Source: an uncultured virus (IMG/VR IMGVR_UViG_3300044557_000566) (lineage: Duplodnaviria > Heunggongvirae > Uroviricota > Caudoviricetes). Taken from it: a DNA stretch of 64,000 bases. Positions within the stretch are counted from its first letter, which is position 1. Every line of letters begins with the position of its first letter. A program made the translations under genes and the position numbers. Below, one piece after another: positions 6,689 to 19,001 of this stretch. Below the pieces are notes generated by a model. It was not told the DNA's origin and made no database searches. It was given only the letters and a program-made list of their open reading frames with translations. The stretch lies in IMG/VR virus record IMGVR_UViG_3300044557_000566; one strand, given 5' to 3'.

Positions 6689-6866
6689 ATAAAATGGGCG
6701 GCTGGTTCCATGCAGCCGGCCTTACGCCGGCCCATGGGGGTACTCAATGGATATGATCCATTCGTTGACCACCAGCACCCCACGATCATGGTTATCTTCA
6801 ATCGCCATGATCGTGTTTCGCAGAATCCTGCATCATGTTGAAGACCACGATGCTATCAACTGTTAG

Positions 6867-6950
6867 CGGATGATGCGGGAGTCGAACCCGCCACGGTGTT
6901 ACCCGAACCTCATTAGCAGTGAGGCGCTTTAACCGCTCAGCCTACCATCC
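6867..6950 (-). tRNA. tRNA-Ser(GCT)
   Basis: CCTCA-CTGCTAA-TGAGG, long variable arm, G73. Confidence 0.9.
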
Positions 6951-7203
6951 ATACGCACTTCATATCAATTGCCGGAGTAAACCAGCAGTATCATTATAAC
7001 TCTTGCAGCCCGATCGTGTCAACCCCATCAGAATCATGCGAGAAACCTGCCATGACCTCAGCCTCATGAGCATCGGTCTTACCGGCAGACCCTCCCCTGC
7101 TGATGGTGAAGCAGATGGAATCATGGCGGTCGGAATTTCCTCACCAATTCCTCCTGAGTTTTATGATTACCCAACCCAGTGATGTGGACTCATCGTTACT
7201 CTC

Positions 7204-7374
7204 CTACTTCCTGCCGGGATGAATAGGATGATCAGTGCTCCCAATAATCGCCGTGAGACGTGGAGCAGGTGTGAAGCCATCCATGAACGCATTCAGGCGC
7301 ACCCTGGAGTCCTCAAGCTCTTTCCTCGTGAGGGGACCACGGTCAATCACGTAACTCTTGTCTATGCTACTCAT
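7204..7374 (-). CDS. Small hypothetical protein in the tRNA array
   Basis: GGAGG RBS before ATG 7374 (MSSIDKSY...). Confidence 0.4.
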   Translation of the reverse strand: MSSIDKSYVIDRGPLTRKELEDSRVRLNAFMDGFTPAPRLTAIIGSTDHPIHPGRK

Positions 7375-7414
7375 TTTCCCGTCCTCCATCGTTTCAATGA
7401 ATAATTGCATGGAG

Positions 7415-7487
7415 TGGAAGCGACGGGGATCGAACCCGCTTCCTCCTGCGTGCAAGGCAGGTGTCCTACCATTAGGACCTCGCCCCC
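7415..7487 (-). tRNA. tRNA-Ala(TGC)
   Basis: CCTGC-CTTGCAC-GCAGG, G3:U70. Confidence 0.9.
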
Positions 7488-7530
7488 ATTTGTGGAATAC
7501 ATGGACACAGTGCTATATCCATGCATCTAG

Positions 7531-7615
7531 CGGATGATGGGGGATTCGAACCCCCGGTGGTGTTACCCACTCCTGTTTTCTAGACAGGTGCACTAAACCG
7601 CTATGCGAATCATCC
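7531..7615 (-). tRNA. tRNA-Ser(AGA), A34
   Basis: CCTGT-CTAGAAA-ACAGG, long variable arm, G73. Confidence 0.9.
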
Positions 7616-7616
7616 G

Positions 7617-7689
7617 AGCCAGCAATCGGTTTCGAACCGATGACCTTCTCATTACAAGTGAGATGCTCTACCATCTGAGCTATGCTGGC
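7617..7689 (-). tRNA. tRNA-Thr(TGT)
   Basis: TCTCA-CTTGTAA-TGAGA. Confidence 0.9.
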
Positions 7690-7709
7690 AATTTTATGAA
7701 GTGATCCTT

Positions 7710-8067
7710 GAAGGCGGCCTGTAGCCACGGTTCTGTCCACATGATGACGAATAGGATCATCATGTTGTACCATCATCCATCTACTCCCGCTACCTGTCCT
7801 TATAACGATCGAATAAATCTAGACGTTCTGCGGTTTCACCGGGACTGGCTTGCCAAGGTTCCCCTCACGAGGATTAACCCACGATTTCTTACATCGTGCT
7901 TTTCACCCTTACCTGTGATTCCTTATGGAATCCATCGGCGGTATGGTCTCTGCGGCGCTATCACTACTCTCACGGGCGGTGGGATTACCCCACGTCCCTA
8001 TTCTATGGTGCCGTGAACTTCCTCTGAAAGAACGTCGTGTTCTACCAGCGATGATCCAGCTGCCTTC
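7710..8067 (-). ncRNA. rnpB: RNase P RNA
   Basis: P1 GAAGGCAGCTG/CAGGCCGCCTTC; 5' GAGGAAGTTCACGGC and 3' ACAGAACCGTGGCTAC form P4 with the bulged U; GGTAAGGGTGAAA present; ~358 nt. Confidence 0.9.
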
Positions 8068-8116
8068 AAAATGTTACGAGCTAACCCAATAAAAATTCGA
8101 GCAATCACGTATCATC

Positions 8117-8181
8117 GTGCTCATAATCGGAATCGAACCGATAACAATATACCCATATGGGAATAAAACCACCAGGTGAGC
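8117..8181 (-). pseudogene. Degenerate tRNA-like remnant
   Basis: Intact T arm ATCGG-TTCGATT-CCGAT and partial acceptor GCTCA/TGAGC; no D arm or normal anticodon arm. Confidence 0.45.
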
Positions 8182-8189
8182 TAATATTT

Positions 8190-8651
8190 TTAGACTAATA
8201 ATGATGACAATTCCGTTACCATTAACTCTAGTGTATGACGCCTTTCATTCATAAGAAACGAATTATTGACCTCATTACCATGATTATCAAATGATACCGA
8301 TTGGTCCCACATGACCCAATCATCCTTGTACTTGTTAATATCATTGATAAGTTCATTAGCAAGATATCTACAAGTTCTTAAACCCTCATAATCCATAAGA
8401 TCATGGGTCAACAGGCCATCATCAATGCTCGTTGATACGGAGTAAAGAATGCCATCAAAATCAAGGAATCCTACCGAATATCCCTCCGCGTCAAGACTTA
8501 CATTCAAATGAACGTCATCCTGATTAGCGGTAAGAACATCGATAAAATATTGAAGCAAGATTATAGGTACGTCATCAGTATAACTCACACTGCCTACACG
8601 CTTGTTATTAATAACAAGATCAGCGTACCCAGAACTTGGCTTTGATAACAA
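8190..8651 (-). CDS. Hypothetical protein (AT-rich insert)
   Basis: 153-aa ORF, AAGGAG RBS before TTG. Confidence 0.65.
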   Translation of the reverse strand: MLSKPSSGYADLVINNKRVGSVSYTDDVPIILLQYFIDVLTANQDDVHLNVSLDAEGYSVGFLDFDGILYSVSTSIDDGLLTHDLMDYEGLRTCRYLANELINDINKYKDDWVMWDQSVSFDNHGNEVNNSFLMNERRHTLELMVTELSSLLV

Positions 8652-8688
8652 AACGTTCTCCTTAACTATATCTCCCTATATCGTGAGG

Positions 8689-8759
8689 AGCGGTCGACGG
8701 GAATCGAACCCGCATCATCTCACAGGCAATGAGACGCCTTACCATTGGGCTACGACCGC
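8689..8759 (-). tRNA. tRNA-Gly(GCC)
   Basis: TCTCA-TTGCCTG-TGAGA, U73. Confidence 0.9.
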
Positions 8760-9015
8760 GTGAAAACCTAGCCAGTCCCCGGAGTGATCATGCATAATCA
8801 GACCAGGGGGACGGCTAGGAACTAAAATGTCGGCCATCATGGATGGGAAGATCCTCGCCTAATTGGAAATACCATAGCGATTGATGTCTTCATGACTGCT
8901 AACCGGGCGATCCCCATGACGCAACAGAATCCTCAGGGCTAGGCGCATCCACGCCTAGTCCTACTCCCCCATTCGGGAACTGCACGAGCATCACGCCTGC
9001 AAGAAGTGACCGACG

Positions 9016-9090
9016 TGCTTCCAACAGGATTCGAACCTGTGATCTCCTCCGTGTAAAGGAGGCGCCTTAGGCCAACTAGGCTACAGAAGC
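9016..9090 (-). tRNA. tRNA-Val(TAC)
   Basis: CCTCC-TTTACAC-GGAGG. Confidence 0.9.
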
Positions 9091-9164
9091 AAGATGTGTA
9101 CAAGCGTGTACAAATAAGATCGTGTACAAGCGTGCATAATCCTATCCGCGTACTGGACGCGTGA

Positions 9165-9329
9165 TCAATCAACCCTAGAATCTTTATCAGGGTCTTTATC
9201 CTTCAGGGTCTTCATGAAGGCGATAGAGGAGTCAACCAGTGAGTTCATCTTACGCTCAGTAGAATTCCTAGGGTGAGCGACCCTGGTATAACCGGGAATA
9301 AGCTTCCTATCCGTTGGGTTCTTACCCAT
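9165..9329 (-). CDS. Small hypothetical protein in the tRNA array
   Basis: GGAGG RBS before ATG 9329 (MGKNPTDRK...). Confidence 0.4.
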   Translation of the reverse strand: MGKNPTDRKLIPGYTRVAHPRNSTERKMNSLVDSSIAFMKTLKDKDPDKDSRVD

Positions 9330-9376
9330 ATCAGCCTCCAAATCCTGTGATTGTGATCCTATGTATGCTTGTTGCG

Positions 9377-9452
9377 TAGCGGGGGCGCGATTCGAACGCG
9401 CGATCTCTTGATTATGGGTCAAGCGAGGACAGCCGAGCTCCTCTACCCCGCA
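9377..9452 (-). tRNA. tRNA-Met(CAT), initiator-like, C33
   Basis: CTTGA-CCCATAA-TCAAG; 1:72 mismatch. Confidence 0.8.
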
Positions 9453-9454
9453 AG

Positions 9455-9527
9455 TGCTTTCAACAGGACTCGAACCTGTGACCTATTCCGTGTGATGGAA
9501 GCGCGCTGCCATCTGCGCCATGAAAGC
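9455..9527 (-). tRNA. tRNA-Val(CAC)
   Basis: Anticodon loop ATCACAC. Confidence 0.85.
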
Positions 9528-9739
9528 ATAAGTGGACGAGACTGCCTCTCCTTATGTCTTATCCATAATGCACCGTGCGTGATCATAAAACCCCCACGGG
9601 AGAGACGTGCTGACTGCTGTGGAGCATCAATGATCACAGCCTGTTATCACTGATCATCACCCCAATGGAGAACAACTCCCGTTATCTCAGGGACTGTTGC
9701 CCTCCACCAGTTACGACAATGATCAATGGATGCTCTGCG

Positions 9740-9810
9740 AGCGGATGACGGGAATCGAACCCGCGTATCTTCCATGGGAGGGAAGCGCCTTACCATTGGG
9801 CTACATCCGC
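9740..9810 (-). tRNA. tRNA-Gly(CCC)
   Basis: CTTCC-CTCCCAT-GGAAG. Confidence 0.9.
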
Positions 9811-10003
9811 AGCGCCAGGATCTTACGTGTCCTGGCAGGAACACTCCAGACTCCATACTCCACCTCGAGGTCAGTATTTCCACCAGCCCCTACAGGAGTG
9901 CTGTCACGACTGCCCTCACCGTCAACCACGTATCGGTTACAGGCTGGGGGGGGGAGTGCAGCTGCCCTAAACGTCTAGCTATAATAGAACAAACCAGACA
10001 TCG

Positions 10004-10074
10004 AGGGGATGACGGGAGCCGAACCCGCGTAACCTGCTTGGAGGGCAGGCGCACTACCGTTATGCTACATCCCC
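10004..10074 (-). tRNA. tRNA-Gly(TCC), C33
   Basis: CCTGC-CCTCCAA-GCAGG. Confidence 0.85.
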
Positions 10075-10202
10075 ATGTATCCTGAAACCATCACCGTGGC
10101 ATGCTCAAGATGGACGAAGGGTGTTCAGGACTGCACACCCTCTGTTTCCTTATCCCCCTATTGCGAGGTGAAATCACGATGATGACAAAAGATTTATGTC
10201 AA

Positions 10203-10780
10203 TTATCTGTGAGGGTTAGATCTTTCAGATTGTAATTTACGAAGGCATTCTTTGCTACAAGATTTTCTAACCTTCCTTGATGTATAAGAAAACTCACGCC
10301 CACACGCTTCACAAACGCTAACTCTACTACGTTTTTTGAGCGTATTCAATCTTCTGCATTCAAAGTAATTAACAGAAGTACGACTCACAAAACCAGTACC
10401 GTTCAATGGAACATTGCTGGATGAAGTTTACGCATCGATTCTGAAGTTTTCTGTCTAGTTTTACTACTTTGAGACCAAGTTCTCGTAAGACTATTAGGAA
10501 TTTGCCCGTAGAATAATGGCTTAAGAGTTACAAACCATTTCATCTCTAGAAAATCCTTAATCCTATTGGAATTCTCGCATTGTTCAAGAATTTGAAATCT
10601 AAGAGCGTGAGGATCTCCACCGTGTCTATTAAACCACTTTATAAATTCCTTACGATTATGATTACCAGACTTCAAACCCTTTAAGTGAGCTTTCCATCGT
10701 TCTTGAATATCCTTAGATTGACCAACGTAAAGACACGCTCCGTTGTAAGAATCAAAAATTGCGTAAATCCCACAAGCCAT
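10203..10780 (-). pseudogene. GIY-YIG homing endonuclease, apparently frameshifted (nuclease domain 10403-10780, Zn-ribbon part 10203-10406)
   Basis: GIYAI...LYVGQSKDIQERWKAH; second frame has CEACG...SCSKEC; AT-rich. Confidence 0.7.
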
Positions 10781-10863
10781 TGCTTATTACCACCTTAATG
10801 TTTTAAGAAACAAACGTTAAGATATCATTAGTAATGAAAATCAATCCTCTCAAGAGGATATCG

Positions 10864-10934
10864 TACCCCATGATTGAGTTGAACAATCTTAAGATGTTTA
10901 TAAGACATCCTTGCGCTACCGGCGACAATGGGGT
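10864..10934 (-). tRNA. tRNA-Ile(TAT), atypical D arm
   Basis: Acceptor ACCCCAT/ATGGGGT, GATGT-CTTATAA-ACATC, T arm GATTG-TTCAACT-CAATC. Confidence 0.75.
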
Positions 10935-10946
10935 GAATGTCCACAA

Positions 10947-11046
10947 TATGGGTTCACCGTGATTAATCACGCCGTGAGCATGAGGACTAGGGTAAGGATA
11001 ACCTAACCCTCACCTTGACGGCAATTGGAATCACGGTGAACCCATA
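10947..11046 (-). ncRNA. Candidate rod-shaped ncRNA
   Basis: 18-bp perfect terminal stem; inner TGAGGGTTAGG/CCTAGTCCTCA pairs fully only on the minus strand (two G-U pairs). Confidence 0.5.
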
Positions 11047-11175
11047 ATTAATAGATATAGGAGGTTTCTCATGACTGATCAGATTCAATGCTGCCACAAT
11101 GATTCCCATGCAATGGAATCATTCCACTGATCCATCATGACCGATCCGGGGAAATGATCAAAACCCGGATCAGCG

Positions 11176-11250
11176 TAGCCATATCGGGGCTCGAACCCGA
11201 ATTCTCTTCATTGAAGGTGAAGTGAGATAAACCAGTTACTCTATATGGCC
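11176..11250 (-). tRNA. tRNA-Glu(TTC), C33
   Basis: CTTCA-CCTTCAA-TGAAG. Confidence 0.85.
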
Positions 11251-12380
11251 CTTCTAGTTCTCCCTAGCTTCCTAATAGGAACACCAAGAAAATTTAATCT
11301 ATTCTCTACAGTAGTATGAGAAATTCCTAATTGTTCAGCAATTGCGTCCATACTCATTTCCTTTATAGAATAACATTTCTGAATTTCATCATCTAGGTTA
11401 TTTGCTATTCCATATCTACCAAGTTGAGCACAAATTCGTGAACAATATGTTTTATCTTTAACTTTTCTTCTAAAGATTGTAAAATGTTTTCCGCAATAAT
11501 CACAAACATAATGGTATCCATCTTTAGGCGTTTTGTGTATTTCTTGAAGAAGCAATCCGTGTTCTTTTAAACATCTTCTCACATGATTCCTACTGATGTG
11601 AAGTTTCTTGGCTGTGTCATATGTACTGATTCCAGATTTATAGGTATCAATGATAATATCCTCAATACTATCAACTTCTTCATGATAACATTCATCTGCC
11701 TTTCTTGTTTTTGGATTTATTCTATTGTCGCAAGAAACATTATTGCGTTTCAAGAATTTATCTAAAGATCCTCGACTGATATGAAGTTTTAATGATATAT
11801 CGCGTATGGCAAAACCAGACCGATAAAGTTCGTTAATAGTATTTTCAATACCATCAATTTCGTCATGATAATGCTTTTCAGCTCGTTTCTTAATTTCTTC
11901 AGCTCCAAGACTGATTTCGGGGTCCAATCTATTAGGCCAAGGAGCACAGATAGCATGATTCATAAGACATTCACCAATATTACGGCCATATTTTATCAGT
12001 AATGTTTCCATCACGTCAAGATCTGTTTTAAACCACGCATAAGCAATGAATGTTTTAATAACATCACCCTCACTATTGGAATTAATGTGCTCCTTAACAT
12101 CCCTACCACTACTCTTATAACGACGCCAACCAGGATTGCCGCTATTGTGCTTATCTTTACTATAATAATCACAAGCTAACTTGCGCTGACCTATGTATGT
12201 CTTGCCATCAGACTTGGTTGTTATCAGATAAATATAACCGTATGGAGTATCATGCGGATCATGCTCAGTCTTAATCTCGTCAGACTTCAACCTGAACATG
12301 GTTCGTAGTCGCTCTACGCGTTCATGCAATGGTAATGATTCCATACGATATATGGCACCAATTAGTATCAAGAATCGCAC
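11241..12380 (-). CDS. GIY-YIG homing endonuclease with HTH/Zn-finger repeats (start possibly ATG 12299)
   Basis: YGYIYLIT...KTYIGQRK, repeated HTH (ISLKLHISR, AKKLHISR, AEQLGISH), CDYCG...YCSRIC; stop codon lies inside tRNA-Glu. Confidence 0.8.
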   Translation of the reverse strand: MRFLILIGAIYRMESLPLHERVERLRTMFRLKSDEIKTEHDPHDTPYGYIYLITTKSDGKTYIGQRKLACDYYSKDKHNSGNPGWRRYKSSGRDVKEHINSNSEGDVIKTFIAYAWFKTDLDVMETLLIKYGRNIGECLMNHAICAPWPNRLDPEISLGAEEIKKRAEKHYHDEIDGIENTINELYRSGFAIRDISLKLHISRGSLDKFLKRNNVSCDNRINPKTRKADECYHEEVDSIEDIIIDTYKSGISTYDTAKKLHISRNHVRRCLKEHGLLLQEIHKTPKDGYHYVCDYCGKHFTIFRRKVKDKTYCSRICAQLGRYGIANNLDDEIQKCYSIKEMSMDAIAEQLGISHTTVENRLNFLGVPIRKLGRTRRAI

Positions 12381-12406
12381 AAATTATGACCCTTTAGGGT
12401 CATAAG

Positions 12407-12480
12407 CGCCCCGAACAGGATTCGAACCTGCAACCTACTGGGTAGAAACCAGCCGCTCTGATCCATTGGGCTACCGAGGC
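12407..12480 (-). tRNA. tRNA-Arg(TCT)
   Basis: GCTGG-TTTCTAC-CCAGT. Confidence 0.9.
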
Positions 12481-12577
12481 ATTAGGATTGGCGTGGTCGC
12501 GGATAAGACGATTATTCCACATTTTCATTTTTCAGATTCAGCCGATCCTCTATATAATCAACCGGCTACCAATCCAG

Positions 12578-12651
12578 TGCCCGCAGTCGGATTCGAACCG
12601 GCAACCTTCTCCTTAGGGGGGAGACGCTCTATCCAGTTGGGCTATGCGGGC
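12578..12651 (-). tRNA. tRNA-Arg(CCT), C33
   Basis: TCTCC-CCCCTAA-GGAGA. Confidence 0.9.
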
Positions 12652-12656
12652 ATGAT

Positions 12657-12770
12657 GCAGACGTGATGAACGCGATCAGGAAGAATCTTTTCCATCAGAC
12701 CACCGACATGCATAAGAGTCGGGCGGGATTCGAACCCGCATCTCTTCCATTACGCGCTCACCGCGTCTGT
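12657..12770 (-). ncRNA. Circularly permuted tRNA-like RNA (Y RNA/YrlA-type architecture)
   Basis: Long terminal stem, then T arm GCGGG-TTCGAAT-CCCGC, loop-closed acceptor CCGAC/GTCGG, then D arm GTCT-GATGGAAA-AGAT. Confidence 0.7.
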
Positions 12771-12828
12771 GCTCGGGGATTCCGGAATCCCCGCTTGAAA
12801 CCGCACGGTTGCAATCCATGCGGCCAAG

Positions 12829-12911
12829 TGCCCCGAGCGGGAGTCGAACCCGCACTTCCGAGGAAAGTTCTTTTTAAGAGAACCGCGTATACCAATTCCA
12901 GCCATCGGGGC
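12829..12911 (-). tRNA. tRNA-Leu(TAA)
   Basis: GTTCT-CTTAAAA-AGAAC, long variable arm. Confidence 0.9.
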
Positions 12912-13011
12912 GTTGGATGAGTTTACCGACATCATTAGGTCTAAGTATAAACGCTATTCCATTATCAAGCATTTGTTCACATTCACACGGTCAACGTGGC
13001 GAACAGTATTC

Positions 13012-13050
13012 ATTATATCACGGTGCTGCGTGCTTGACAACGGCGTGTCG
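13012..13050 (-). promoter_or_regulatory. Internal sigma-A promoter of the tRNA array
   Basis: CGACACGCCG-TTGTCA-17 nt-TATAAT with extended -10 TG. Confidence 0.7.
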
Positions 13051-13084
13051 CAATCCCCCGCTATAAGTTTTGAATAATGGTCAG

Positions 13085-13156
13085 ACGTGGAGACGGGATT
13101 CGAACCCGCGTATAATTGAATTGCGGTCAATTGCCTAACCATTTGGCTACTCCACG
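13085..13156 (-). tRNA. tRNA-Cys(GCA), C33
   Basis: ATTGA-CCGCAAT-TCAAT, U73. Confidence 0.85.
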
Positions 13157-13157
13157 G

Positions 13158-13229
13158 TACGGGCAGATCGAGTTGAACGATCCTTGCTTCTGTATCAGAG
13201 AAGTGTACTCACCGATGTACGATGCCCGC
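13158..13229 (-). tRNA. tRNA-Ile(GAT), divergent
   Basis: CTTCT-CTGATAC-AGAAG. Confidence 0.75.
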
Positions 13230-13281
13230 GTATTCTACTCATTCTGCTGTTCGCGTGTGAGCACGAGGAGCGTGCTCATCG

Positions 13282-13355
13282 TCACAACGGGAGGACTCGA
13301 ACCTCCGACATCCTGATTATGATTCAGGCGCTCTCACCAGCTGAGCTACGTTGCG
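13282..13355 (-). tRNA. tRNA-Met(CAT), elongator
   Basis: CCTGA-ATCATAA-TCAGG. Confidence 0.85.
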
Positions 13356-13466
13356 TTACGAGATATAGACGGTCACGGCTGAGTCTACGATCAGTAAACA
13401 TCCCCGCGGGCTGTGCGGCCACATGCCAGCGCTTCCTCCTATTGAAAGTCGCGCAAGCACCCACCG

Positions 13467-13538
13467 TGGATCCAACGAGAGTCGAACTCGCCACATCCTC
13501 CGTGCGGGGGAGGATCGCCACCATCGGCATTTGGACCC
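13467..13538 (-). tRNA. tRNA-Ala(CGC), C33
   Basis: CCTCC-CCCGCAC-GGAGG, G3:U70. Confidence 0.8.
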
Positions 13539-13633
13539 ATAATAATGAATGTTATAATTGTGCTCGATTCGACATGCTGGTACGATGTACTAGAACCTCG
13601 ATAGGGACCATAATGCTTCCATCATGATCCTCG

Positions 13634-13707
13634 TGCGAATGGATCGGCTTGAACGATTGACATCATCCTTATCAGGAATGCGCTCTAACCATCTGAGCTA
13701 CATCCGC
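13634..13707 (-). tRNA. tRNA-Ile(GAT)
   Basis: CATTC-CTGATAA-GGATG. Confidence 0.85.
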
Positions 13708-13738
13708 GAGCCTTATAAATAGTTGAATAAGGAGTCAA

Positions 13739-14155
13739 TCAATTTGACAAACTTTTAATCGCGTTAATCACTTCTGTGCACTCCTTAACTTGTAATGATT
13801 CCACGCCATAACGATCAGCCACATTTTCAAGACGTGCTTCAAAGCTTACAAGATCCCCGCGTGAATCAACAGACATATCAGCCTTATTAAGGAGTATTCC
13901 TAACGTAGTATTCAGACCTTCCATCGTACCATGCGCTGCTACTTCTTTCCAGTGAACATAACCTTGGGATCTTAGCAAATCACCACCAATCTTAGCGTGA
14001 GTACGATTGTCCCCAATCATGTACCCAAGATCATGCACCCATCCTAATAATGCTGCTTCTTGAGGATCAAGCCCATATTCTGATGCATGATTAAACATGT
14101 ATTCTGCTACTCCTCGTGAGTGTGAAGCCCTAGTAGAATCAATAAAACTAATCAA
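13739..14155 (-). CDS. HD-domain phosphohydrolase
   Basis: HSRGVA...GWVHDLGY...H...AH...LNKAD. Confidence 0.85.
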   Translation of the reverse strand: MISFIDSTRASHSRGVAEYMFNHASEYGLDPQEAALLGWVHDLGYMIGDNRTHAKIGGDLLRSQGYVHWKEVAAHGTMEGLNTTLGILLNKADMSVDSRGDLVSFEARLENVADRYGVESLQVKECTEVINAIKSLSN

Positions 14156-14210
14156 TAATTCTCCTTATTAATAAATTGACACTCGAACGTACAAACCCAT
14201 AACTAGGGTA

Positions 14211-14248
14211 CGTGCGGGGGAGGATCGCCACCAGCGGCATTTGGACCC
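14211..14248 (-). pseudogene. 5' half of tRNA-Ala(CGC), truncated just after the anticodon loop
   Basis: 37/38 identity to 13501-13538. Confidence 0.75.
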
Positions 14249-14279
14249 AGGTAATGCTAACCGTATGGCTAGCATATCG

Positions 14280-14354
14280 TGCGGATGATGTGACTTGAAC
14301 ACATGACCTCATTCTTATCAGGAATGCGCTGCTAACCATCTGAGCTACATCCGC
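14280..14354 (-). tRNA. tRNA-Ile(GAT)
   Basis: CATTC-CTGATAA-GAATG. Confidence 0.9.
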
Positions 14355-14403
14355 ATGTCTCATATAATGAATGACGGGCAGCAAGCCACGCCGATGATGG
14401 TCA

Positions 14404-14493
14404 GGTTCAACCCCTCTACGCTGGGAATACCCGCGTTGTCAGACGCTTGCCCACTGAGCGCGGAGAGGTTCAACCCCTCTACGCTGGGAATAC
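14404..14493 (-). CRISPR. Mini-array: two identical variant repeats and one spacer
   Basis: GGTTCAACCCCTCTACGCTGGGAATAC at 14404 and 14467; three differences from the main-array repeat. Confidence 0.8.
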
Positions 14494-14536
14494 CTCCTAG
14501 GTCATCCGGGTACAATCATCTACTCCCCTCACCACG

Positions 14537-14609
14537 AGCCAGCACCCGGAATCGGACCGGGGACCTTCTCATTACGAGTGAGACGCTCTACCATCTGAGC
14601 TATGCGGGC
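14537..14609 (-). tRNA. tRNA-Thr(CGT)
   Basis: TCTCA-CTCGTAA-TGAGA. Confidence 0.85.
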
Positions 14610-14786
14610 ATACACGATTTTATCCAGATCGTGAACTGGTTGGCGCGCCCTTAGTTAGATGCCGGTCAATCACTTCCACCAATTGTTAGCATCGTTCCCG
14701 CGAACAGCACGCGGACGCCATCCCGCGTGACACTCACCCGAGTACGGTTCGGAGGTTGGGGCTGTGGACACTCCGATGGAGAGACG

Positions 14787-14860
14787 TGTTCGCAGCTGGA
14801 TTTGGACCAGCGACCGCCTCCGTGTCAGGGAGGAACGCTACCGGACTGCGCCATGCGAAC
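14787..14860 (-). tRNA. tRNA-Val(GAC)
   Basis: CCTCC-CTGACAC-GGAGG. Confidence 0.85.
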
Positions 14861-14922
14861 ATATGAGACCAAGACGCCTGATCCACAGGCAATCAACGAT
14901 TGCCATGGACGTGGACGCGGAG

Positions 14923-14995
14923 AGCCAACAGATGGAATCGAACCATCGACCTTCTCATTACTGGTGAGACGCTCTACCAACTGAGCTATGCAGGC
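14923..14995 (-). tRNA. tRNA-Thr(AGT), A34 and C33
   Basis: TCTCA-CCAGTAA-TGAGA. Confidence 0.85.
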
Positions 14996-15102
14996 AAGAT
15001 GGACGGCTTGGGTGATCCCATTTGCCGTCACGACTCGAAGCATGAACCCGCCAGTTCATGTTTCTCATCGTGACGGCCGCACTACTAGGAATACCGTCAA
15101 TG

Positions 15103-15176
15103 TGCCTCCAGCCGGGTTCGAACCGGCGGCATCTTGTTTCGAAGACAAGCGCTCTGATCCGCTGAGCTATGGAGGC
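15103..15176 (-). tRNA. tRNA-Arg(TCG)
   Basis: CTTGT-CTTCGAA-ACAAG. Confidence 0.9.
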
Positions 15177-15186
15177 AAGTAGTGAT

Positions 15187-15265
15187 TGGCGAGGCGTGCA
15201 ACCATGCTGCATCTGCGGAATCGGACCGGTGCAGGAATACGGACTCGAGCCGTTACCCTTCGCCA
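15187..15265 (-). ncRNA. Second candidate permuted tRNA-like (Y-like) RNA
   Basis: TGGCGAAGG/CCTCGCCA closing stem; ACGG-CTCGAGT-CCGT, CTGC/GCAG and TGCAGC-ATG-GTTGCA in T-acceptor-D order. Confidence 0.4.
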
Positions 15266-15308
15266 CGGGGCAACCAGCCCCAATCCTACCACACCGGGTA
15301 GGACGCAG

Positions 15309-15381
15309 TTCTCCCAATCGGTCTCGAACCGATGACACCCTGCTTAAGAGGCAGGTGCTCTACCATCTGAGCTATAGGAGC
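15309..15381 (-). tRNA. tRNA-Lys(CTT)
   Basis: CCTGC-CTCTTAA-GCAGG; 1:72 mismatch. Confidence 0.85.
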
Positions 15382-15419
15382 ATTATCTCCCAAATCATCA
15401 ATCACAATGACTGGAATTG

Positions 15420-15493
15420 GGTGACTGGAGGAACTCGAATCCTCGACCTGCTGAACCACAATCAGCCGCTCTAACCATCTGAGCTACAGCCAC
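15420..15493 (-). tRNA. tRNA-His(GTG)
   Basis: GCTGA-TTGTGGT-TCAGC, C73. Confidence 0.9.
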
Positions 15494-15495
15494 AG

Positions 15496-15568
15496 CTCCC
15501 CGTGAAGGATTCGAACCTCCAACCTCTGCATTCAGAGTGCAGCGCACGGCCAAACATGCTGACGGGGA
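15496..15568 (-). tRNA. tRNA-Gln(CTG)
   Basis: CTGCA-CTCTGAA-TGCAG. Confidence 0.85.
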
Positions 15569-15609
15569 ATATTAGGACTCATTGAGATTACTATTCTCAA
15601 TGCTTCCAG

Positions 15610-15680
15610 CTGCCCACCATGGATTCGAACCATGCTTGGAGGTACCAAAAGCCTCAGTCCTGCCAATAGACGAGTGGGCA
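15610..15680 (-). tRNA. tRNA-Gln(TTG)
   Basis: Anticodon loop TTTTGGT, U1:A72. Confidence 0.85.
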
Positions 15681-15941
15681 ATATGAAAATCCAGCTCTTA
15701 ACGGAAGCTGGAATGAAGCTCTTAATATGCGAATCCGCACTAGACTATCGTTCTCAATGATTCCTAGTTTCTAGTATCATTGCGTCCATGAGCTACCGAC
15801 GTCCAAGTGAATGGCGGTCAAGCACATGCGAGTACAGTGATCTCTATGATCACAAATGATGCTCACATTGGATTAACGCTTAACCAGATCCGCTGCAGTC
15901 CAGTTCGAGAGGCGGGCGTGGTGCGCACGCAAGCCGCCAAG

Positions 15942-16014
15942 TGCTCTCAGTGGGATTCGAACCCGCAGCCTCCTGTTCCGTAGACAGACGCTCTATCCGT
16001 TGAGCTATGAGAGC
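15942..16014 (-). tRNA. tRNA-Arg(ACG)
   Basis: TCTGT-CTACGGA-ACAGG. Confidence 0.9.
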
Positions 16015-16047
16015 AAAATAACAAAAACGACTCTAAAAGCCATTTCG

Positions 16048-16119
16048 TGCCCCATGGGAATTCTGCCATCCCGACCCGATGCTTAAAAGGCACCTGTTCT
16101 CCTTCTGAACTAATGAGGC
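16048..16119 (-). tRNA. tRNA-Lys(TTT), non-canonical T loop
   Basis: GGTGC-CTTTTAA-GCATC; T arm GGGA-TGGCAGAAT-TCCC. Confidence 0.7.
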
Positions 16120-16346
16120 AAATATAAGATTTGATGGAAGCATAGCCTGGTCATGGCTCCAATCCATGTTACCATCCCGTCACCATGATTACGATTGCTA
16201 GCATTACCGTCATCATGATGGCTGCGAGTCACGTTCTATACGCTCATGGTCCGGAGTCTAACCGGATCCCATTGGAGACCTGCACTCCACTCTCGCACAG
16301 CTACGAGCCGCCCATCCTATCCTCATAAGAGGTAAGGATCGCATCG

Positions 16347-16418
16347 TACGCCCGCCGGAACTTGAATCCGGTCCAGCGGTTTTGGAGACCATTATGCTTC
16401 CAATCACACTACAGACGA
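16347..16418 (-). tRNA. tRNA-Trp(CCA)
   Basis: Anticodon loop CTCCAAA. Confidence 0.75.
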
Positions 16419-16420
16419 CG

Positions 16421-16494
16421 TGCCCTCCACGGGATTCGAACCCGCACTGAACAGCTCCTAAGGCTGTTGCCTCTGCCAGTTGGGCTAAGAGGGC
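16421..16494 (-). tRNA. tRNA-Leu(TAG), short variable arm
   Basis: ACAGC-CTTAGGA-GCTGT. Confidence 0.9.
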
Positions 16495-16693
16495 TTGAAT
16501 GCGCAATAAATGGTGGGTTTATTGTCATCACCGGGACATTGACGCCACGCGTTCATCCAGAGCATTCGCTGGGGACAACCGGTCAGGCTTGGTGTTACGA
16601 TTCTATCGTAACACACAACTGCGAATCGTGATGATTGGCGTGTCTTAAGTGTGAGCAGGTGAGCCCCATCTGAGGGGATGATGCTCAAGCGCG

Positions 16694-16766
16694 TGGAACC
16701 GGGGGGAGTCGAACCCTCTACCTCTTCCGTGCTGGGGAAGCGCTCTACCAGTTGAGCTACGGTCCC
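16694..16766 (-). tRNA. tRNA-Ala(AGC), A34 and C33
   Basis: CTTCC-CCAGCAC-GGAAG, G3:U70. Confidence 0.9.
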
Positions 16767-16767
16767 G

Positions 16768-16839
16768 CACGTCGGCAAGGAATCGAACCCTGATCGGGAG
16801 GTTTGGAAGCTCCTGTCCTTCCAGTTGGACGACCGACGC
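16768..16839 (-). tRNA. tRNA-Trp(CCA)
   Basis: Anticodon loop TTCCAAA, G73. Confidence 0.8.
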
Positions 16840-16849
16840 ATGATGCGGA

Positions 16850-16919
16850 CAATGAGTAGGACTGTCGCGCCCGCCTGGCATGAAGCCAGGCAGCGGGTTA
16901 AACCCCGCTGTACTCATTG
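16850..16919 (-). ncRNA. Candidate four-way-junction RNA (permuted tRNA-like)
   Basis: 9-bp closing stem CAATGAGTA/TACTCATTG enclosing 5-, 7- and 4-bp hairpins. Confidence 0.45.
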
Positions 16920-16977
16920 CCCTGATATGATGATGTAGACGAGGTCACAGCCACCCTATCATTCGTCTACACCAGCG

Positions 16978-17057
16978 TGGTGCGTGAGGGACTCGAACCC
17001 CCGTACCCGAGAGAGCTGATTTACAGTCAGCCGCATTTGCCGCTCTGCCAACGCACC
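16978..17057 (-). tRNA. tRNA-Tyr(GTA)
   Basis: GCTGA-CTGTAAA-TCAGC. Confidence 0.9.
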
Positions 17058-17149
17058 ATGTGATCACCGCTGGGCTGCTGTGCTTCCACCCTGACCCTGT
17101 GACGATGACGGCGACCCGTGAGTACATTATATGCTCACACCGTCGCCAG

Positions 17150-17223
17150 TGCCGACAGTCCGGGTCGAACGGACAACCTCCGAGGCTTCAACTCGGCGCT
17201 CTTGCCAATTGAGCTATGACGGC
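17150..17223 (-). tRNA. tRNA-Phe(GAA)
   Basis: CCGAG-TTGAAGC-CTCGG. Confidence 0.9.
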
Positions 17224-17224
17224 G

Positions 17225-17307
17225 TGCATCCAGTCTGATTTGAACAGACATGCCTTATCGGCAATGGCTTCTGAAGCCATCGTGTATACCAGTTTCACCA
17301 TGAATGC
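17225..17307 (-). tRNA. tRNA-Leu(CAG), long variable arm
   Basis: ATGGC-TTCAGAA-GCCAT. Confidence 0.85.
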
Positions 17308-17449
17308 AAATGGCGGCTTCCCCGCCAGCACTGGTGTTCTCATCGAACGAGCAATGGCGTTGAACGGGCGCATCACAGACTGAACCTCATCCAACCGATG
17401 GGATTTTTACCAGACTGAACCCTGGAGTGCCTTTGCCGTGGCTCCGCCG

Positions 17450-17514
17450 TAGTCTCAACAGGACTCGAACCTGATTCGTCTGACATGGGAGGCAGACGTA
17501 CTACCAATGAGACA
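17450..17514 (-). ncRNA. D-armless tRNA-like element
   Basis: Acceptor GTCTCA/TGAGAC, T arm CAGG-TTCGAGT-CCTG, 6-bp CGTCTG/CAGACG arm, no D stem. Confidence 0.55.
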
Positions 17515-17654
17515 TTTCTAAATTATGTAGACAATAGCATGAATGTGGGCGTTGCACCCACAGGGTCGCTATAGCATTCGGCTCGTTAGTGGTCACGACT
17601 AACCATGATAATCTTTACGATTATGCTGCTAACTCAAAGCCTACTGATACTGCG

Positions 17655-17743
17655 CGGTTGATGAGGGATTCGAACCCCCGGTGGACGTTAATCCACGCTT
17701 GTTTAGTAGACAAGTGCCATAAGCCAGACTCGGCCAATCAACC
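17655..17743 (-). tRNA. tRNA-Ser(ACT), A34
   Basis: CTTGT-CTACTAA-ACAAG, long variable arm, G73. Confidence 0.9.
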
Positions 17744-17941
17744 ATATGATTGCTTGACGGACAATCATGAGGACAAAGCTCCGCGGAGCGCTCCGCCCAC
17801 CGGCTAGGCCATCAACCCAGCGTAATGTGCGTCCCTGCTTGCAGATGCTGTCAGGATTCCTCATCTGCATGTCCATCCTCACAATAAGTCCTGTCATTAT
17901 TGGATGGGCTGGCTAGATACGTTGCCATATCCAGGGGCGCG

Positions 17942-18028
17942 CGGATGATGGGGGATTTGAACCCTCGGTGGTGTGACCCACTCCGTCTTTCGAGGACGGT
18001 GCACTAAACCAGACTATGCGAATCATCC
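17942..18028 (-). tRNA. tRNA-Ser(CGA)
   Basis: CCGTC-CTCGAAA-GACGG. Confidence 0.9.
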
Positions 18029-18064
18029 ATATGCTGATCATGTGGCCATTGGCAGCAAGATCCG

Positions 18065-18138
18065 TCCCTCGTATCGGCGACGATCCGATCACTCCCTGAT
18101 TAAGAGTCAGGTGCTCTACCAACATGAGCTAACGAGGG
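18065..18138 (-). tRNA. tRNA-Lys(CTT), non-canonical T loop
   Basis: CCTGA-CTCTTAA-TCAGG; T loop ATCGTCG. Confidence 0.8.
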
Positions 18139-18139
18139 G

Positions 18140-18213
18140 TTGCGGAGAATGGATTCGAACCATTGACTTCGTGGGTATGAGCCACGCGAGCTACCGAACT
18201 GCTCTACTCCGCG
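18140..18213 (-). tRNA. tRNA-fMet(CAT)
   Basis: C1:A72 mismatch, loop CTCATAC. Confidence 0.9.
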
Positions 18214-18287
18214 TGTCCCCTATGGGATTCGAACCCATACTAGACGGCTCCTTAGGCCGACGCCTCTACCAATTGGGCTAAAGGGAC
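18214..18287 (-). tRNA. tRNA-Leu(AAG), A34, short variable arm
   Basis: CGGC-CTAAGGA-GCCG. Confidence 0.85.
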
Positions 18288-18374
18288 ATGATACGTGGAT
18301 GCGATCATGATCGTCACCAGTCACGCATCCACGATAGGGCCAACTGGTGACAACCGTCGCTGTCATCGTGTGCC

Positions 18375-18465
18375 CGGTTCTCAGGGGGATTCGAACCCAC
18401 GCTCGCTGGGAATGACCCCTCGCACCACTTTATCGGCGGCTGCTACCATTGCATCATTGAGAACC
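18375..18465 (-). tRNA. Atypical tRNA-like gene: 8-bp acceptor, long extra arm, loop CGATAAA
   Basis: GGTTCTCA/TGAGAACC, G73, canonical TTCGAAT T loop. Confidence 0.55.
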
Positions 18466-18468
18466 ACG

Positions 18469-18554
18469 TGCCCTCACCCGGATTCGAACCGAGAGCCCCA
18501 TCACGGGAAGACGGGTTTGAGCCGTCCGCGTCTACCAATTCCAGCCATGAGGGC
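18469..18554 (-). tRNA. tRNA-Leu(CAA)
   Basis: GACGG-CTCAAAC-CCGTC, long variable arm. Confidence 0.9.
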
Positions 18555-18710
18555 AATTTGCTTAATGCTCTGTAAGGAGAATCACTTATGATCATCAGGA
18601 CTGCAAGCGCAAGCCGTATGCGCTCACCGGGTGACTATCCCCCGCCAAGGGAAGAATTGCCGCCAACAATTCTTGTCATCATCCCCACGGTTGTCCATTC
18701 CCGTGGTAAG

Positions 18711-18784
18711 TACTCTCCATGGGATTCGAACCCATGCTAGACGGTCCCTGAAACCGCCTCCTCTGCCAATCGGGCTAGGAGAGC
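18711..18784 (-). tRNA. tRNA-Leu(CAG), short variable arm
   Basis: GCGGT-TTCAGGG-ACCGT. Confidence 0.85.
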
Positions 18785-18841
18785 ATAACGTGCCGTCAAT
18801 CCCACCGTGGTTTGGGGAGTTGAACCATTGACGGCACATAG

Positions 18842-18915
18842 TAGCCTCATCGGGACTCGAACCCGAAGTCTCATCCTTGAGAGGGATGCGAGGTGACCAG
18901 TTACTCTATGAGGCC
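18842..18915 (-). tRNA. tRNA-Glu(CTC)
   Basis: CATCC-CTCTCAA-GGATG. Confidence 0.9.
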
Positions 18916-18916
18916 G

Positions 18917-19001
18917 CGGATGATGAGGGATTCGAACCCCCGGTGGTGTTACCCACTCTTGTTTTCAAGACAAGTGCACTCGACCGCTATGCGAATCATC
19001 C
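18917..19001 (-). tRNA. tRNA-Ser(TGA)
   Basis: CTTGT-CTTGAAA-ACAAG. Confidence 0.9.

Follow-up and report, generated by a model that had tools for sequence, protein, structure and literature searches.

Six A34 tRNA genes, including Ser(ACU), in the tRNA array of a 420-kb mobile element

Described systems with A34 tRNAs

Why almost every bacterium, archaeon, and phage avoids adenosine at anticodon position 34 (A34) outside tRNA-Arg is a long-standing question. In eukaryotes, the inosine (I34) boxes of ADAT2/3 are those of Thr, Ala, Pro, Ser, Leu, Ile, Val, and Arg. A review called Ser(ACU) "universally missing" and A34 anticodons "prohibited" in phages (PMC8007984), and reported that the anticodons missing from bacteria are missing from phages too (PMC8007984, citing PMC6409571). 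Among the closest described systems are the Leuconostocaceae (Oenococcus oeni, Leuconostoc), in which Leu(AAG) and Thr(AGU) replace the G34 genes (PMC8007984, PMC11066159). Two of the four A34 tRNAs of O. oeni are edited, so unmodified A34 works beside I34 in this organism (PMC11066159, PMC8007984). The unmodified Thr(AGU) of Mycoplasma and A34 tRNAs engineered in E. coli are cases of authentic A34 decoding, in which U is read strongly and C is read weakly or in a context-dependent manner (PMC11066159). Dense tRNA arrays with homing endonucleases occur in actinobacterial phages (cluster C1 mycobacteriophages and the Streptomyces phage BillNye) and in the tRNA region of T4, with its Seg endonuclease.

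Here, we analyzed a 64,000-nucleotide stretch (the window) of a 419,707-bp replicon (419.7 kb), an IMG/VR virus record with terminal repeats. This mobile element, a giant plasmid-like replicon or else a huge phage, probably resides in an actinobacterium of high GC content. Like the Leuconostocaceae, it combines a bacterial-type system with four-codon boxes in which A34 stands in for G34. However, the A34 genes of that family are chromosomal and at most four in number, whereas six are found here on a mobile element; Ser(AGA), Ala(AGC), and the split-box Ser(ACU) are not among the Leuconostocaceae A34 tRNAs that PMC8007984 and PMC11066159 describe, and no co-evolved TadA is in view here. In contrast to Mycoplasma, where A34 belongs to a minimal tRNA set, the A34 tRNAs of the element are accompanied by U34 and C34 isoacceptors and form part of a redundant set. 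Its dense array with homing endonucleases recalls those of actinobacterial phages and T4, and it further resembles the actinobacterial arrays in its actinobacterial flavour and in a tmRNA encoded elsewhere on the element (the only one in a whole-replicon scan), but the 28 tRNAs annotated in a 40-kb stretch of BillNye show no A34 outside Arg.

The tRNA array and its A34 genes

Within the array, ARAGORN counted 50 tRNA genes, on the minus strand throughout, and Rfam supplied the 51st, giving 42 distinct anticodons that cover all 20 amino acids (Table 1). None of these genes encodes CCA, two homing endonuclease genes lie among them, and scanning all 419,707 bp of the replicon revealed no tRNA gene beyond the array, which is best explained as the home-grown, nearly complete tRNA set of the element. 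The sequence-only reading had claimed that A34 tRNAs for Ser(AGA), Thr(AGT), Ala(AGC), Leu(AAG), and Ser(ACT) accompany Arg(ACG) within positions 7531-18287; ARAGORN and Rfam recovered all six, at positions that agree with these limits. It had also found Ser(GGA), Thr(GGT), Ala(GGC), and Leu(GAG) to be missing from the array. This holds for the whole 419,707-bp replicon, in which the anticodons GGA, GGT, GGC, GAG, and GCG are absent from the element's tRNAs, as distinct from those of the host cell.

Table 1. Coordinates of the tRNA array, its A34 genes, and other features of the window
Feature	Position	Strand	Details
tRNA array, 51 genes	6615..20076	-	ARAGORN + Rfam
tRNA-Ser(GCT)	6866..6950	-	ordinary AGY reader, kept alongside Ser(ACT); ARAGORN, Rfam
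tRNA-Ser(AGA)	7530..7615	-	56.5 bits; A34 at 7581; loop CU-AGA-AA; long variable arm, G73
RNase P RNA, bacterial class A	7706..8067	-	full length, within array; 148.4 bits, gathering score 100, model 1-367/367
Homing endonuclease, GIY-YIG	10403..10780
Homing endonuclease, SegE-like	11241..12380
tRNA-Thr(AGT)	14922..14995	-	62.2 bits; A34 at 14962; loop CC-AGU-AA (C33)
tRNA-Arg(ACG)	15941..16014	-	63.6 bits; A34 at 15981; loop CU-ACG-GA
tRNA-Lys(UUU)	16048..16119	-	Rfam only, 41.5 bits; loop CU-UUU-AA
tRNA-Ala(AGC)	16693..16766	-	56.4 bits; A34 at 16733; loop CC-AGC-AC (C33); G3:U70, A73
tRNA-Ser(ACT)	17654..17743	-	50.4 bits; A34 at 17707; loop CU-ACU-AA; long variable arm, G73
tRNA-Leu(AAG)	18213..18287	-	56.6 bits; A34 at 18253; loop CU-AAG-GA; A73
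tRNA-like gene	18375..18465		aberrant; no Rfam match
CCA-adding tRNA nucleotidyltransferase, actinobacterial type	25159..26769	-	TIGR02692, 527 bits, cut-off 438.8
Translation initiation factor IF3	26785..27309	-	IF3_C + IF3_N
Pnkp-related kinase-phosphatase, possible RNA-repair enzyme	42009..43268	-	AAA_33; TIGR04075 below cut-off

All six A34 genes are canonical tRNAs by Rfam (RF00005, 50.4-63.6 bits against a gathering score of 29), each can be drawn as a regular cloverleaf, and the plus-strand letter at every position-34 site is T. It is therefore highly improbable that they are decaying copies, unexpressed genes, or assembly errors, even though the acceptor stem of Thr(AGT) has one U:U mismatch and one G:U pair and the aberrant tRNA-like gene lies nearby. 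Scores of 50-64 bits come with preserved identity marks (G3:U70 in Ala; the long arm and G73 in Ser), and five independent errors each yielding A34 would be implausible. Assembly error is further disfavoured by ten other runs, in which 85-100% of the sampled words of the stretch were found. Strain variants point the same way, as 38 of the 40 listed (of 123) avoid the tRNA genes, which cover 28.5% of the stretch (p = 2e-4).

A further argument against non-functional genes is that unrelated viral contigs likewise carry Ser(ACU) and Thr(AGU). A tRNA-Ser(ACT) was present at 20 of the 21 viral loci matched by the Ser(ACT) anticodon arm, with four further tRNA bodies, and two control 17-mers gave three and two matches, none of them in a tRNA. 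For Thr, 11 of 25 loci matched by a generic pattern held a tRNA-Thr(AGT), with nine distinct sequences. Where Ser(ACT) was the only AGY tRNA in view, AGT exceeded AGC about 5-7:1 (88:16, 76:11, 43:10, and 55:9); at loci with Ser(GCT) beside Ser(ACT), the ratio was about 1:1. With non-Arg A34 in 5 of 51 tRNAs, the element lies far above its comparators, namely none of the 28 BillNye tRNAs and one of 44 in an Aeriscardovia genome (Pro(AGG)). Pro(AGG) stands in place of GGG in 3 of 201 sampled genomes of the best-matching family.

The nearest relative of every A34 tRNA is an array paralog for the same amino acid (73-93% identity). Ser(AGA) is 93% identical to Ser(TGA) at 18916, Thr(AGT) 86% to Thr(TGT) at 7616, Leu(AAG) 79% to Leu(TAG) and Leu(CAG), which are both short, and Ala(AGC) 73% to Ala(TGC); Ser(ACT) is 78% identical to Ser(AGA) and Ser(TGA), and 66% to Ser(GCT). 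Because the closest sequence is in each case such a neighbour, we take their origin by duplication and anticodon change to be established at the level of sequence comparison. The five non-Arg A34 tRNAs would have been born within the lineage, from duplicated U34 or C34 isoacceptors whose anticodons were altered.

Editing and decoding of the A34 tRNAs

The set had been described as eukaryote-like. Five of the eight eukaryotic inosine boxes (Thr, Ala, Ser, Leu, and Arg) do have A34 without G34 here, combined with U34 and C34 in Ser, Thr, and Leu and with U34 in Ala and Arg, but the description was overstated: Val keeps GAC, Ile keeps GAT in three copies, and Pro has TGG and CGG only. Moreover, Ser(ACU) is foreign to the eukaryotic set, and no ADAT-like enzyme was found in the replicon. 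A broadened TadA, another earlier suggestion, was likewise not found: six-frame searches of the replicon, as distinct from its host, with PF00383 and PF14437 revealed no TadA-like deaminase and matched one gene. This sole CDA-fold zinc deaminase gene, which matches ComEB and dCTP/dCMP deaminase models and whose six PDB matches are all dCMP deaminases, was rejected as a TadA and is a dCMP deaminase. An A_deamin family search of the replicon gave no match, its control being likewise silent.

Known bacterial TadA sites all share a U33-A34-(C/A)35-G36 core (YUACGAA or YUAMGRA), every site reported in E. coli or K. pneumoniae lying in UACG and those of S. pyogenes in UAMG (PMC11472039). By this motif, drawn from the few species in which TadA specificity is known, the sole candidate sites are Arg(ACG) (CUACGGA) and Leu(AAG) (CUAAGGA), the latter fitting the S. 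pyogenes consensus YUAMGRA (PMC11472039). Ser(AGA), Thr(AGU), Ala(AGC), and Ser(ACU) all lack G36, and Thr(AGU) and Ala(AGC), with C33, also lack U33. As E. coli TadA fails to edit streptococcal Leu(AAG) in vitro, editing of Leu(AAG) here would depend on the host's enzyme; the element's 75-nt tRNA-Leu(AAG) also differs in having no long variable arm. RNA-library contigs touch the array and, among the 40 of 123 differences listed, include no T>C at the six sites, although such contigs cannot show modification.

The modification state and decoding range of the A34 tRNAs are inferred here. Since the core is missing from four of the five non-Arg tRNAs, unmodified A34 decoding, proposed earlier for the set, is best supported for these four, but Leu(AAG) fits the motif. 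With about even confidence, we propose that Ser(AGA), Thr(AGU), Ala(AGC), and Ser(ACU) are unmodified readers of U-ending codons, pairing Watson-Crick with UCU, ACU, GCU, and AGU and reading C weakly, and that host TadA would deaminate Arg(ACG), and perhaps Leu(AAG), to inosine. C-ending codons in the A34 boxes would then go to host G34 tRNAs or to weaker A:C or U34 wobble. In E. coli, inosine formed at only 3 of 15 A34 anticodons tested; an ACU tRNA kept A34 unedited and decoded AGU, no reading of AGC or AGA being detected, and AGA and AGU anticodons favoured U over C by about 10:1 or better (PMC11066159).

Codon use bears on this proposal in several ways. I34 in Ser(ACT) would, as had been pointed out correctly by wobble rules, also read AGA, and editing of this tRNA is disfavoured because AGA, used 1360 times among the element's 118,008 codons (1.15%), would be misread as Ser. 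Counting against unmodified A34, the codons TCC, ACC, GCC, and CTC, 8009 in all (6.8%), would have no standard reader in the element's set if A34 reads only U, which is odd in a set that otherwise duplicates host anticodons and which inosine would solve. The A34 boxes are not singled out by the element's own codon use, as their U/(U+C) of 0.46-0.61 is not elevated relative to the Val (0.48) and Gly (0.57) boxes, which have G34. In favour of the proposal, the share of U-ending codons in A34 boxes is 0.23-0.39 in the element and 0.05-0.17 in a best-matching-family genome, which was chosen from one gene at 50-54% identity.

The gap in C-ending readers is one reason to consider that I34 arises in all six A34 tRNAs, through either a host deaminase of relaxed specificity or an unrecognised deaminase of the element, giving eukaryotic-style decoding of each four-codon box by I34, U34, and C34. 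The layout of A34 and U34, with or without C34, and no G34 in Ser, Thr, Leu, Ala, and Arg matches the eukaryotic pattern, bacterial TadA has on more than one occasion widened its range to include Leu(AAG), namely in S. pyogenes and in O. oeni (PMC11472039), and the Pro(AGG) genes of the best-matching family indicate that A34 is tolerated there. Nevertheless, we consider such broad editing improbable, given the outcome of the deaminase searches of the replicon, the four loops without G36 and two without U33, unlike every known TadA site, the Ser that would be inserted at AGA, and the deviating Val, Ile, and Pro boxes.

RNA-handling genes and tRNA-targeting defence

Unmodified decoding by the four tRNAs is compatible with a further explanation, the escape from anticodon nucleases raised earlier. 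In this view, the replacement of G34 by A34 and loop changes such as C33 would protect the element's tRNAs from anticodon-loop nucleases of the host or from toxins that deplete host tRNAs, for which they would be poor substrates. Phage tRNAs may evade VapC, PrrC, and colicins by anticodon-loop changes, a published hypothesis based largely on actinobacterial phages (van den Berg et al. 2023; PMC10264068). The support here is circumstantial. Almost every host-type anticodon is present again in the set, a pattern more in keeping with replacement than with supplementation, and the element encodes a kinase-RNA ligase 1 fusion, a Pnkp-like protein, a CCA enzyme, RNase P RNA, a PTH2 domain, a tmRNA, and IF3. 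Furthermore, C33 is enriched, occurring in 8 of 49 tRNAs here versus none of 142 in other viral loci and BillNye (p = 1e-5). However, C33 is not linked to A34 (two of six A34 tRNAs versus 6 of 43 others), no nuclease keyed to G34 of these four tRNAs was found, and Ser(GCT) is retained, as are the G34 tRNAs that serve Val, Gly, Ile, and every two-codon box. We regard escape from defence as a rather doubtful possibility.

A bolder reading, which we hold to be rather doubtful, is that a replacement pool re-engineered through swaps of G34 for A34 in four boxes, an additional AGU-only Ser tRNA, eight tRNAs with C33 for the near-universal U33, and shortened Leu tRNAs, and served by its own RNase P RNA, CCA, and repair functions, lets the element's translation survive tRNA-cleaving defences, or else that an unrecognised deaminase provides a bacterium with inosine decoding in the eukaryotic style. 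If either were true, "forbidden" A34 anticodons such as those of Ser(ACU) and Thr(AGU) would belong regularly, and through selection, to the tRNA sets of mobile elements instead of being accidents. The element is a natural replicon that brings together five "prohibited" A34 types with close U34 and C34 paralogs as built-in controls. It thus offers an experimental handle on whether unmodified A34 is both tolerated and useful, how narrow TadA is, and whether loop changes protect mobile-element tRNAs against host nucleases, and it is relevant to sense-codon reassignment, an application that calls for A34 decoders specific to U.

The tRNA array and the origin of its A34 genes

ARAGORN placed 50 tRNA genes within 6615-20076 of the window, all on the minus strand and 42 of them also at or above the Rfam gathering score, and Rfam added a 51st. 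The array covers all 20 amino acids with 42 distinct anticodons; none of its genes encodes CCA, and a scan of the whole replicon found one tmRNA and no tRNA outside it. Six genes carry A34. We found that these score 50.4-63.6 bits in Rfam (gathering score 29) and fold into regular cloverleafs, with G3:U70 and A73 both in place in Ala(AGC), and a long variable arm and G73 in each of Ser(AGA) and Ser(ACT). The full tRNA scan of the replicon yielded no GGA, GGT, GGC or GAG anticodon. The sequence-only reading, which had reported A34 tRNAs lacking G34 counterparts, was therefore correct, and the A34 pattern is genuine and well beyond what chance would give. Its description of the set as eukaryote-like holds in part: five of the eight eukaryotic inosine boxes fit, whereas Val and Ile retain G34 and Pro is served by TGG and CGG only.

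Features of the array and of the wider element (window coordinates, unless prefixed C1 for the whole record or L042 for another stretch of it; loops span tRNA positions 32-38)
Feature	Position	Strand	Remarks
tRNA-Ser(AGA)	7530-7615	-	A34; loop CU-AGA-AA
RNase P RNA, bacterial class A	7706-8067	-	Rfam 148.4 bits, model positions 1-367 of 367
GIY-YIG homing endonuclease gene	10403-10780	-	among tRNA genes
SegE-like GIY-YIG homing endonuclease gene	11241-12380	-	among tRNA genes
HD-domain ORF	13739-14155		
tRNA-Thr(AGT)	14922-14995	-	A34; loop CC-AGU-AA
tRNA-Arg(ACG)	15941-16014	-	A34; loop CU-ACG-GA
tRNA-Lys(UUU)	16048-16119	-	51st gene; Rfam
tRNA-Leu(TAG), short	16420-16494	-	75 nt
tRNA-Ala(AGC)	16693-16766	-	A34; loop CC-AGC-AC
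tRNA-Ser(ACT)	17654-17743	-	A34; loop CU-ACU-AA
tRNA-Leu(AAG), short	18213-18287	-	A34; loop CU-AAG-GA; 75 nt
tRNA-like gene	18375-18465	-	91 nt
tRNA-Leu(CAG), short	18710-18784	-	75 nt
CCA enzyme	25159-26769		actinobacterial type; TIGR02692, 527 bits, above cut-off
CRISPR array 1	about 31268-33620	+	at least 24 repeat copies; overlaps called ORF 31428-32246
Topoisomerase I, two adjacent ORFs	43380-45908	-	
Deaminase-family gene	C1:182,1xx-182,495		
CRISPR array 2	C1:242,551-244,361		about 30 copies, same repeat as array 1
Complete type I-E cas set	C1:244.5-253.5 kb		Cas3, Cse1, Cas7, Cas5, Cas6e, Cas1, Cas2; adjoins array 2
P-loop kinase (AAA_33) and T4-type RNA ligase 1 fusion	G000:C1:377,922-379,442 (L042:17922-19442)	-	

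Within the array, identity is 93% between Ser(AGA) and Ser(TGA), 86% between Thr(AGT) and Thr(TGT), 80% between Arg(ACG) and Arg(TCG) and 73% between Ala(AGC) and Ala(TGC); Leu(AAG) shares 79% identity with the short Leu(TAG) and Leu(CAG), and Ser(ACT) 78% with both Ser(AGA) and Ser(TGA), compared with 66% for Ser(GCT). Because the nearest relative of every A34 tRNA is a tRNA for the same amino acid in its own array, the A34 genes were made by duplication and anticodon change inside the lineage and did not come from a eukaryote.

Across the array, four runs (two of them metatranscriptomes, one possibly RNA and one DNA) showed 123 strain differences, 40 of which were listed; 38 of these 40 lie outside the tRNA genes, which make up 28.5% of the stretch compared (p = 2e-4). 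The A34 genes contain none of the 40 and, in contigs, no listed difference alters a position-34 site. RNA-library contigs cover the array in places, one of them spanning Ala(AGC) at 16658-16808, with DNA carry-over possible. That the A34 genes are non-functional seems to us very improbable.

Several other features of the array were observed. Bacterial tRNA-Leu normally has a long variable arm, and the three short paralogs with Leu anticodons lack it; they retain A73 and a Leu-like D-loop. The array has long-arm Leu(TAA), Leu(CAA) and Leu(CAG) as well. The tRNA-like gene has a long extra arm and a short loop in which ARAGORN reads a two-base anticodon; it had no Rfam match at E <= 0.01 and may be a decayed tRNA or something else. 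The homing endonuclease genes are positioned as segB reportedly is in the T4 tRNA region.

Possible editing and decoding of the A34 tRNAs

A broadened TadA, the bacterial tRNA adenosine deaminase that converts A34 to inosine (I34), had been suggested as one basis for the A34 set, and none was found on the replicon. The Pfam scan of the element's 368 ORF translations gave no TadA-like gene, and six-frame searches of the replicon with PF00383 and PF14437 converged on the same single gene, of the dCMP deaminase type: it matches ComEB and dCMP/dCTP deaminases in NCBIfam, and all six of its PDB matches are dCMP deaminases (best, human dCMP deaminase, E = 9e-34). PF02137 (A_deamin) had no match in the element, but control genomes were equally silent. 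The host may possibly supply an A34-editing enzyme.

According to the available text of one study (PMC11472039), every reported editing site in E. coli and K. pneumoniae lies within UACG (YUACGAA) and those of S. pyogenes lie within UAMG (YUAMGRA); the S. pyogenes TadA edits Leu(AAG) too, and a streptococcal Leu(AAG) tRNA was not edited by E. coli TadA in vitro. In the portion available of a second study (PMC11066159), 3 of 15 A34 anticodons became inosine in E. coli, all tested in one tRNA body. There, the ACU anticodon kept its A34 and read AGU, and any reading of AGC or AGA was below detection; the AGA and AGU anticodons preferred U over C by about 10:1 or better, and AGC read GCU and GCC about equally without inosine. 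The same text gives four A34 tRNAs for O. oeni, only two of them edited. Because their loops fit known editing sites, Arg(ACG) is a plausible TadA substrate and Leu(AAG) possibly another, while editing of Ser(AGA), Thr(AGU), Ala(AGC) and Ser(ACU) would need a specificity never reported for bacterial TadA.

The most likely mechanism, to which we give about an even chance, combines four unmodified A34 readers with host editing. Ser(AGA), Thr(AGU), Ala(AGC) and Ser(ACU) would stay A34 and read U-ending codons, the host would edit Arg(ACG) and perhaps Leu(AAG) to inosine, and C-ending codons would be left to host G34 tRNAs. Several observations argue against the unmodified-A34 reading. Within the element, U/(U+C) is 0.46-0.61 in the A34 boxes, no higher than in the G34 boxes of Val (0.48) and Gly (0.57). 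Moreover, 8009 C-ending codons (6.8%) lack a standard reader in the element's set if A34 reads U only, and this set otherwise repeats nearly every host-type anticodon. It is not self-sufficient in any case, because it has no Pro tRNA with a purine at position 34 to read CCU and CCC (2068 codons). Broad inosine editing of the A34 set would supply readers for the 8009 codons, but would demand the unreported TadA specificity for four loops, and I34 in Ser(ACU) would insert serine at AGA, which accounts for 1360 of 118,008 codons in the element; we regard such editing as quite unlikely.

The sequence-only reading had also raised escape from anticodon nucleases. Hardening against tRNA-targeting defence would be compatible with the unmodified-A34 mechanism, and we consider it unlikely. 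U33 is near-universal in tRNAs, and we found C33 in its place in 8 of 49 array tRNAs (Gln CTG, Met CAT, Gly TCC, Glu TTC, Arg CCT, Cys GCA, Thr AGT and Ala AGC; positions 6615, 9376, 10003, 11175, 12577, 13084, 14922 and 16693), compared with 0 of 142 tRNAs of other viral loci and the Streptomyces phage BillNye (p = 1e-5). However, C33 is not confined to the A34 genes, and we know of no nuclease that keys on G34 of these tRNAs. The C33 tRNAs fit the proposal, in the available text of PMC10264068, that phage tRNAs escape host tRNases through anticodon-loop changes. Also in keeping with hardening, the element carries the class A RNase P RNA, IF3, the kinase-RNA ligase 1 fusion, a Pnkp-like protein in the window and a PTH2-domain protein; the fusion and the Pnkp-like protein together suggest tRNA repair. 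The RNase P RNA sits within the array, flanked by Thr(TGT) on one side and an ORF on the other, and the main text of the 2020 huge-phage paper makes no mention of "RNase P".

Nature and host of the element

The IMG/VR virus record is 419,707 bp long, has direct terminal repeats and includes the window as its bases 299,869-363,868; it is either a huge phage or a giant replicon of plasmid type. Neither Pfam (368 ORF translations) nor PHROGs (171) detected a capsid, terminase or portal gene, and six-frame searches with PF03237, PF05065 and PF03354 reached 15.8 bits at best, below the cut-off. Phage-like genes include RIIA and RIIB homologs, DNA glucosyl- and TET-associated glycosyltransferases, an Apyc1-like protein and a DnaE-type polymerase; plasmid-like genes include a VirB4-like AAA_10 protein, TcpE, a TraG-type coupling protein, three T2SSE secretion ATPases, ParA and ParB, with a pilin motif alongside the T4SS-like genes. 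The glycolytic enzymes TIM and class II aldolase, fumarase and three ribonucleotide reductase systems are also encoded. Topoisomerase I is divided between two ORFs, one holding Toprim and the first part of Topoisom_bac and the next the last part and the C-terminal repeats.

The best named relatives of the CCA enzyme are from Bifidobacteriaceae (50-54% identity), with other Actinomycetota at 46-50%, and CrgA, NucS and a PASTA-bearing penicillin-binding protein on the element are in line with a host among the actinobacteria. A 350-kb contig (P0003) carries a homolog with 61% identity. The enzyme also served to look for close relatives of the element. As a single query, it found no relative in viral or genome contigs; as an alignment query, it matched viral contigs at no more than 40% identity, and a single tRNA (Pro TGG) was present across 21 loci; and the metagenome scan returned cellular homologs only, at 51% identity or less. 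The stretch also occurs in public runs whose labels name bioreactor sludge, wastewater and dust.

One genome of the Bifidobacteriaceae, an Aeriscardovia MAG of anaerobic-bioreactor origin, has 44 tRNAs, including GGC, GAG, GGA, GGT and ACG. Unexpectedly, it also has a non-Arg A34 tRNA, Pro(AGG) instead of Pro(GGG). Pro(AGG) occurred in 3 of 201 Bifidobacteriaceae genomes sampled (loci L268, on G001:C9, L285 and L286), and its bearers are a possible lead to the host. Spacers of two such genomes (98 and 40 repeats) had no match of at least 24 nt to the element, the best being 23 nt with one mismatch. In the five boxes, U-ending codons take a share of 0.23-0.39 in the element versus 0.05-0.17 in the Aeriscardovia MAG (some 17,000 codons, crudely called). 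If the host is of the Aeriscardovia kind, a guess from one gene, the element calls for U-ending codons 2-5 times as heavily as its host.

Recurrence of Ser(ACT) in other viruses

Extra A34 tRNAs are already known in a few Firmicutes and Mycoplasma. The available text of one review (PMC8007984, citing PMC6409571) describes A34 in the Ser-Arg split box as "universally missing" and phages as lacking the same anticodons as bacteria. A set of five non-Arg A34 tRNAs including Ser(ACU) on a mobile element is undescribed in the literature searched; rare A34 genes may be listed in the supplements of PMC10264068 and of PMC6409571, the latter on anticodon patterns of phage clusters. In a 40-kb stretch of BillNye, Arg is the only A34 tRNA among 28 annotated. 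A megablast search of 50,697 phage records with the array returned nothing beyond single-tRNA matches, which came from 12 records.

The 17-base anticodon arm of the window Ser(ACT) matched 21 viral contigs, and a tRNA-Ser(ACT) occupies the site in 20 of them, whereas two control 17-mers, exact copies of the Thr(AGT) and Ala(AGC) arms, matched 3 and 2 viral sites, respectively, and no tRNA. With C, G or T at position 34, the Ser(ACT) arm found 22 loci, comprising 8 Ser(GCT), 4 Arg(TCT) and 10 non-tRNA sites, so that ACT is the commoner form in this arm. The viral Ser(ACT) tRNAs include four further bodies, 64-79% identical among themselves and to the window gene. A generic Thr(AGU) pattern met this tRNA in 11 of 25 loci (9 distinct sequences), and the matching G34 pattern hit 49 loci, none of them Thr(GGT), though the loop contexts of G34 genes may differ.

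Two of the viral Ser(ACT) clusters (L006, 8361-8452, and L011, 11566-11657) also contain a long-arm tRNA with the anticodon CTA, labelled Pyl by ARAGORN. The L006 copy is 78% identical to the adjoining Ser(ACT); this tRNA is probably a serine-type amber suppressor, a hint that these phages recode TAG.

Where Ser(ACT) is the sole AGY tRNA in the 13-20 kb examined, AGT:AGC is 88:16, 76:11, 43:10 and 55:9; it is near 1:1 where Ser(GCT) co-occurs, and 1528:1667 in the element itself. Because AGA is frequent in several contigs with Ser(ACT) (for example, 127 of 4467 codons), inosine in this tRNA is disfavoured. Codon use in the viral Ser(ACT) loci fits an AGU-specific reader, and Ser(ACT) is not a one-off.
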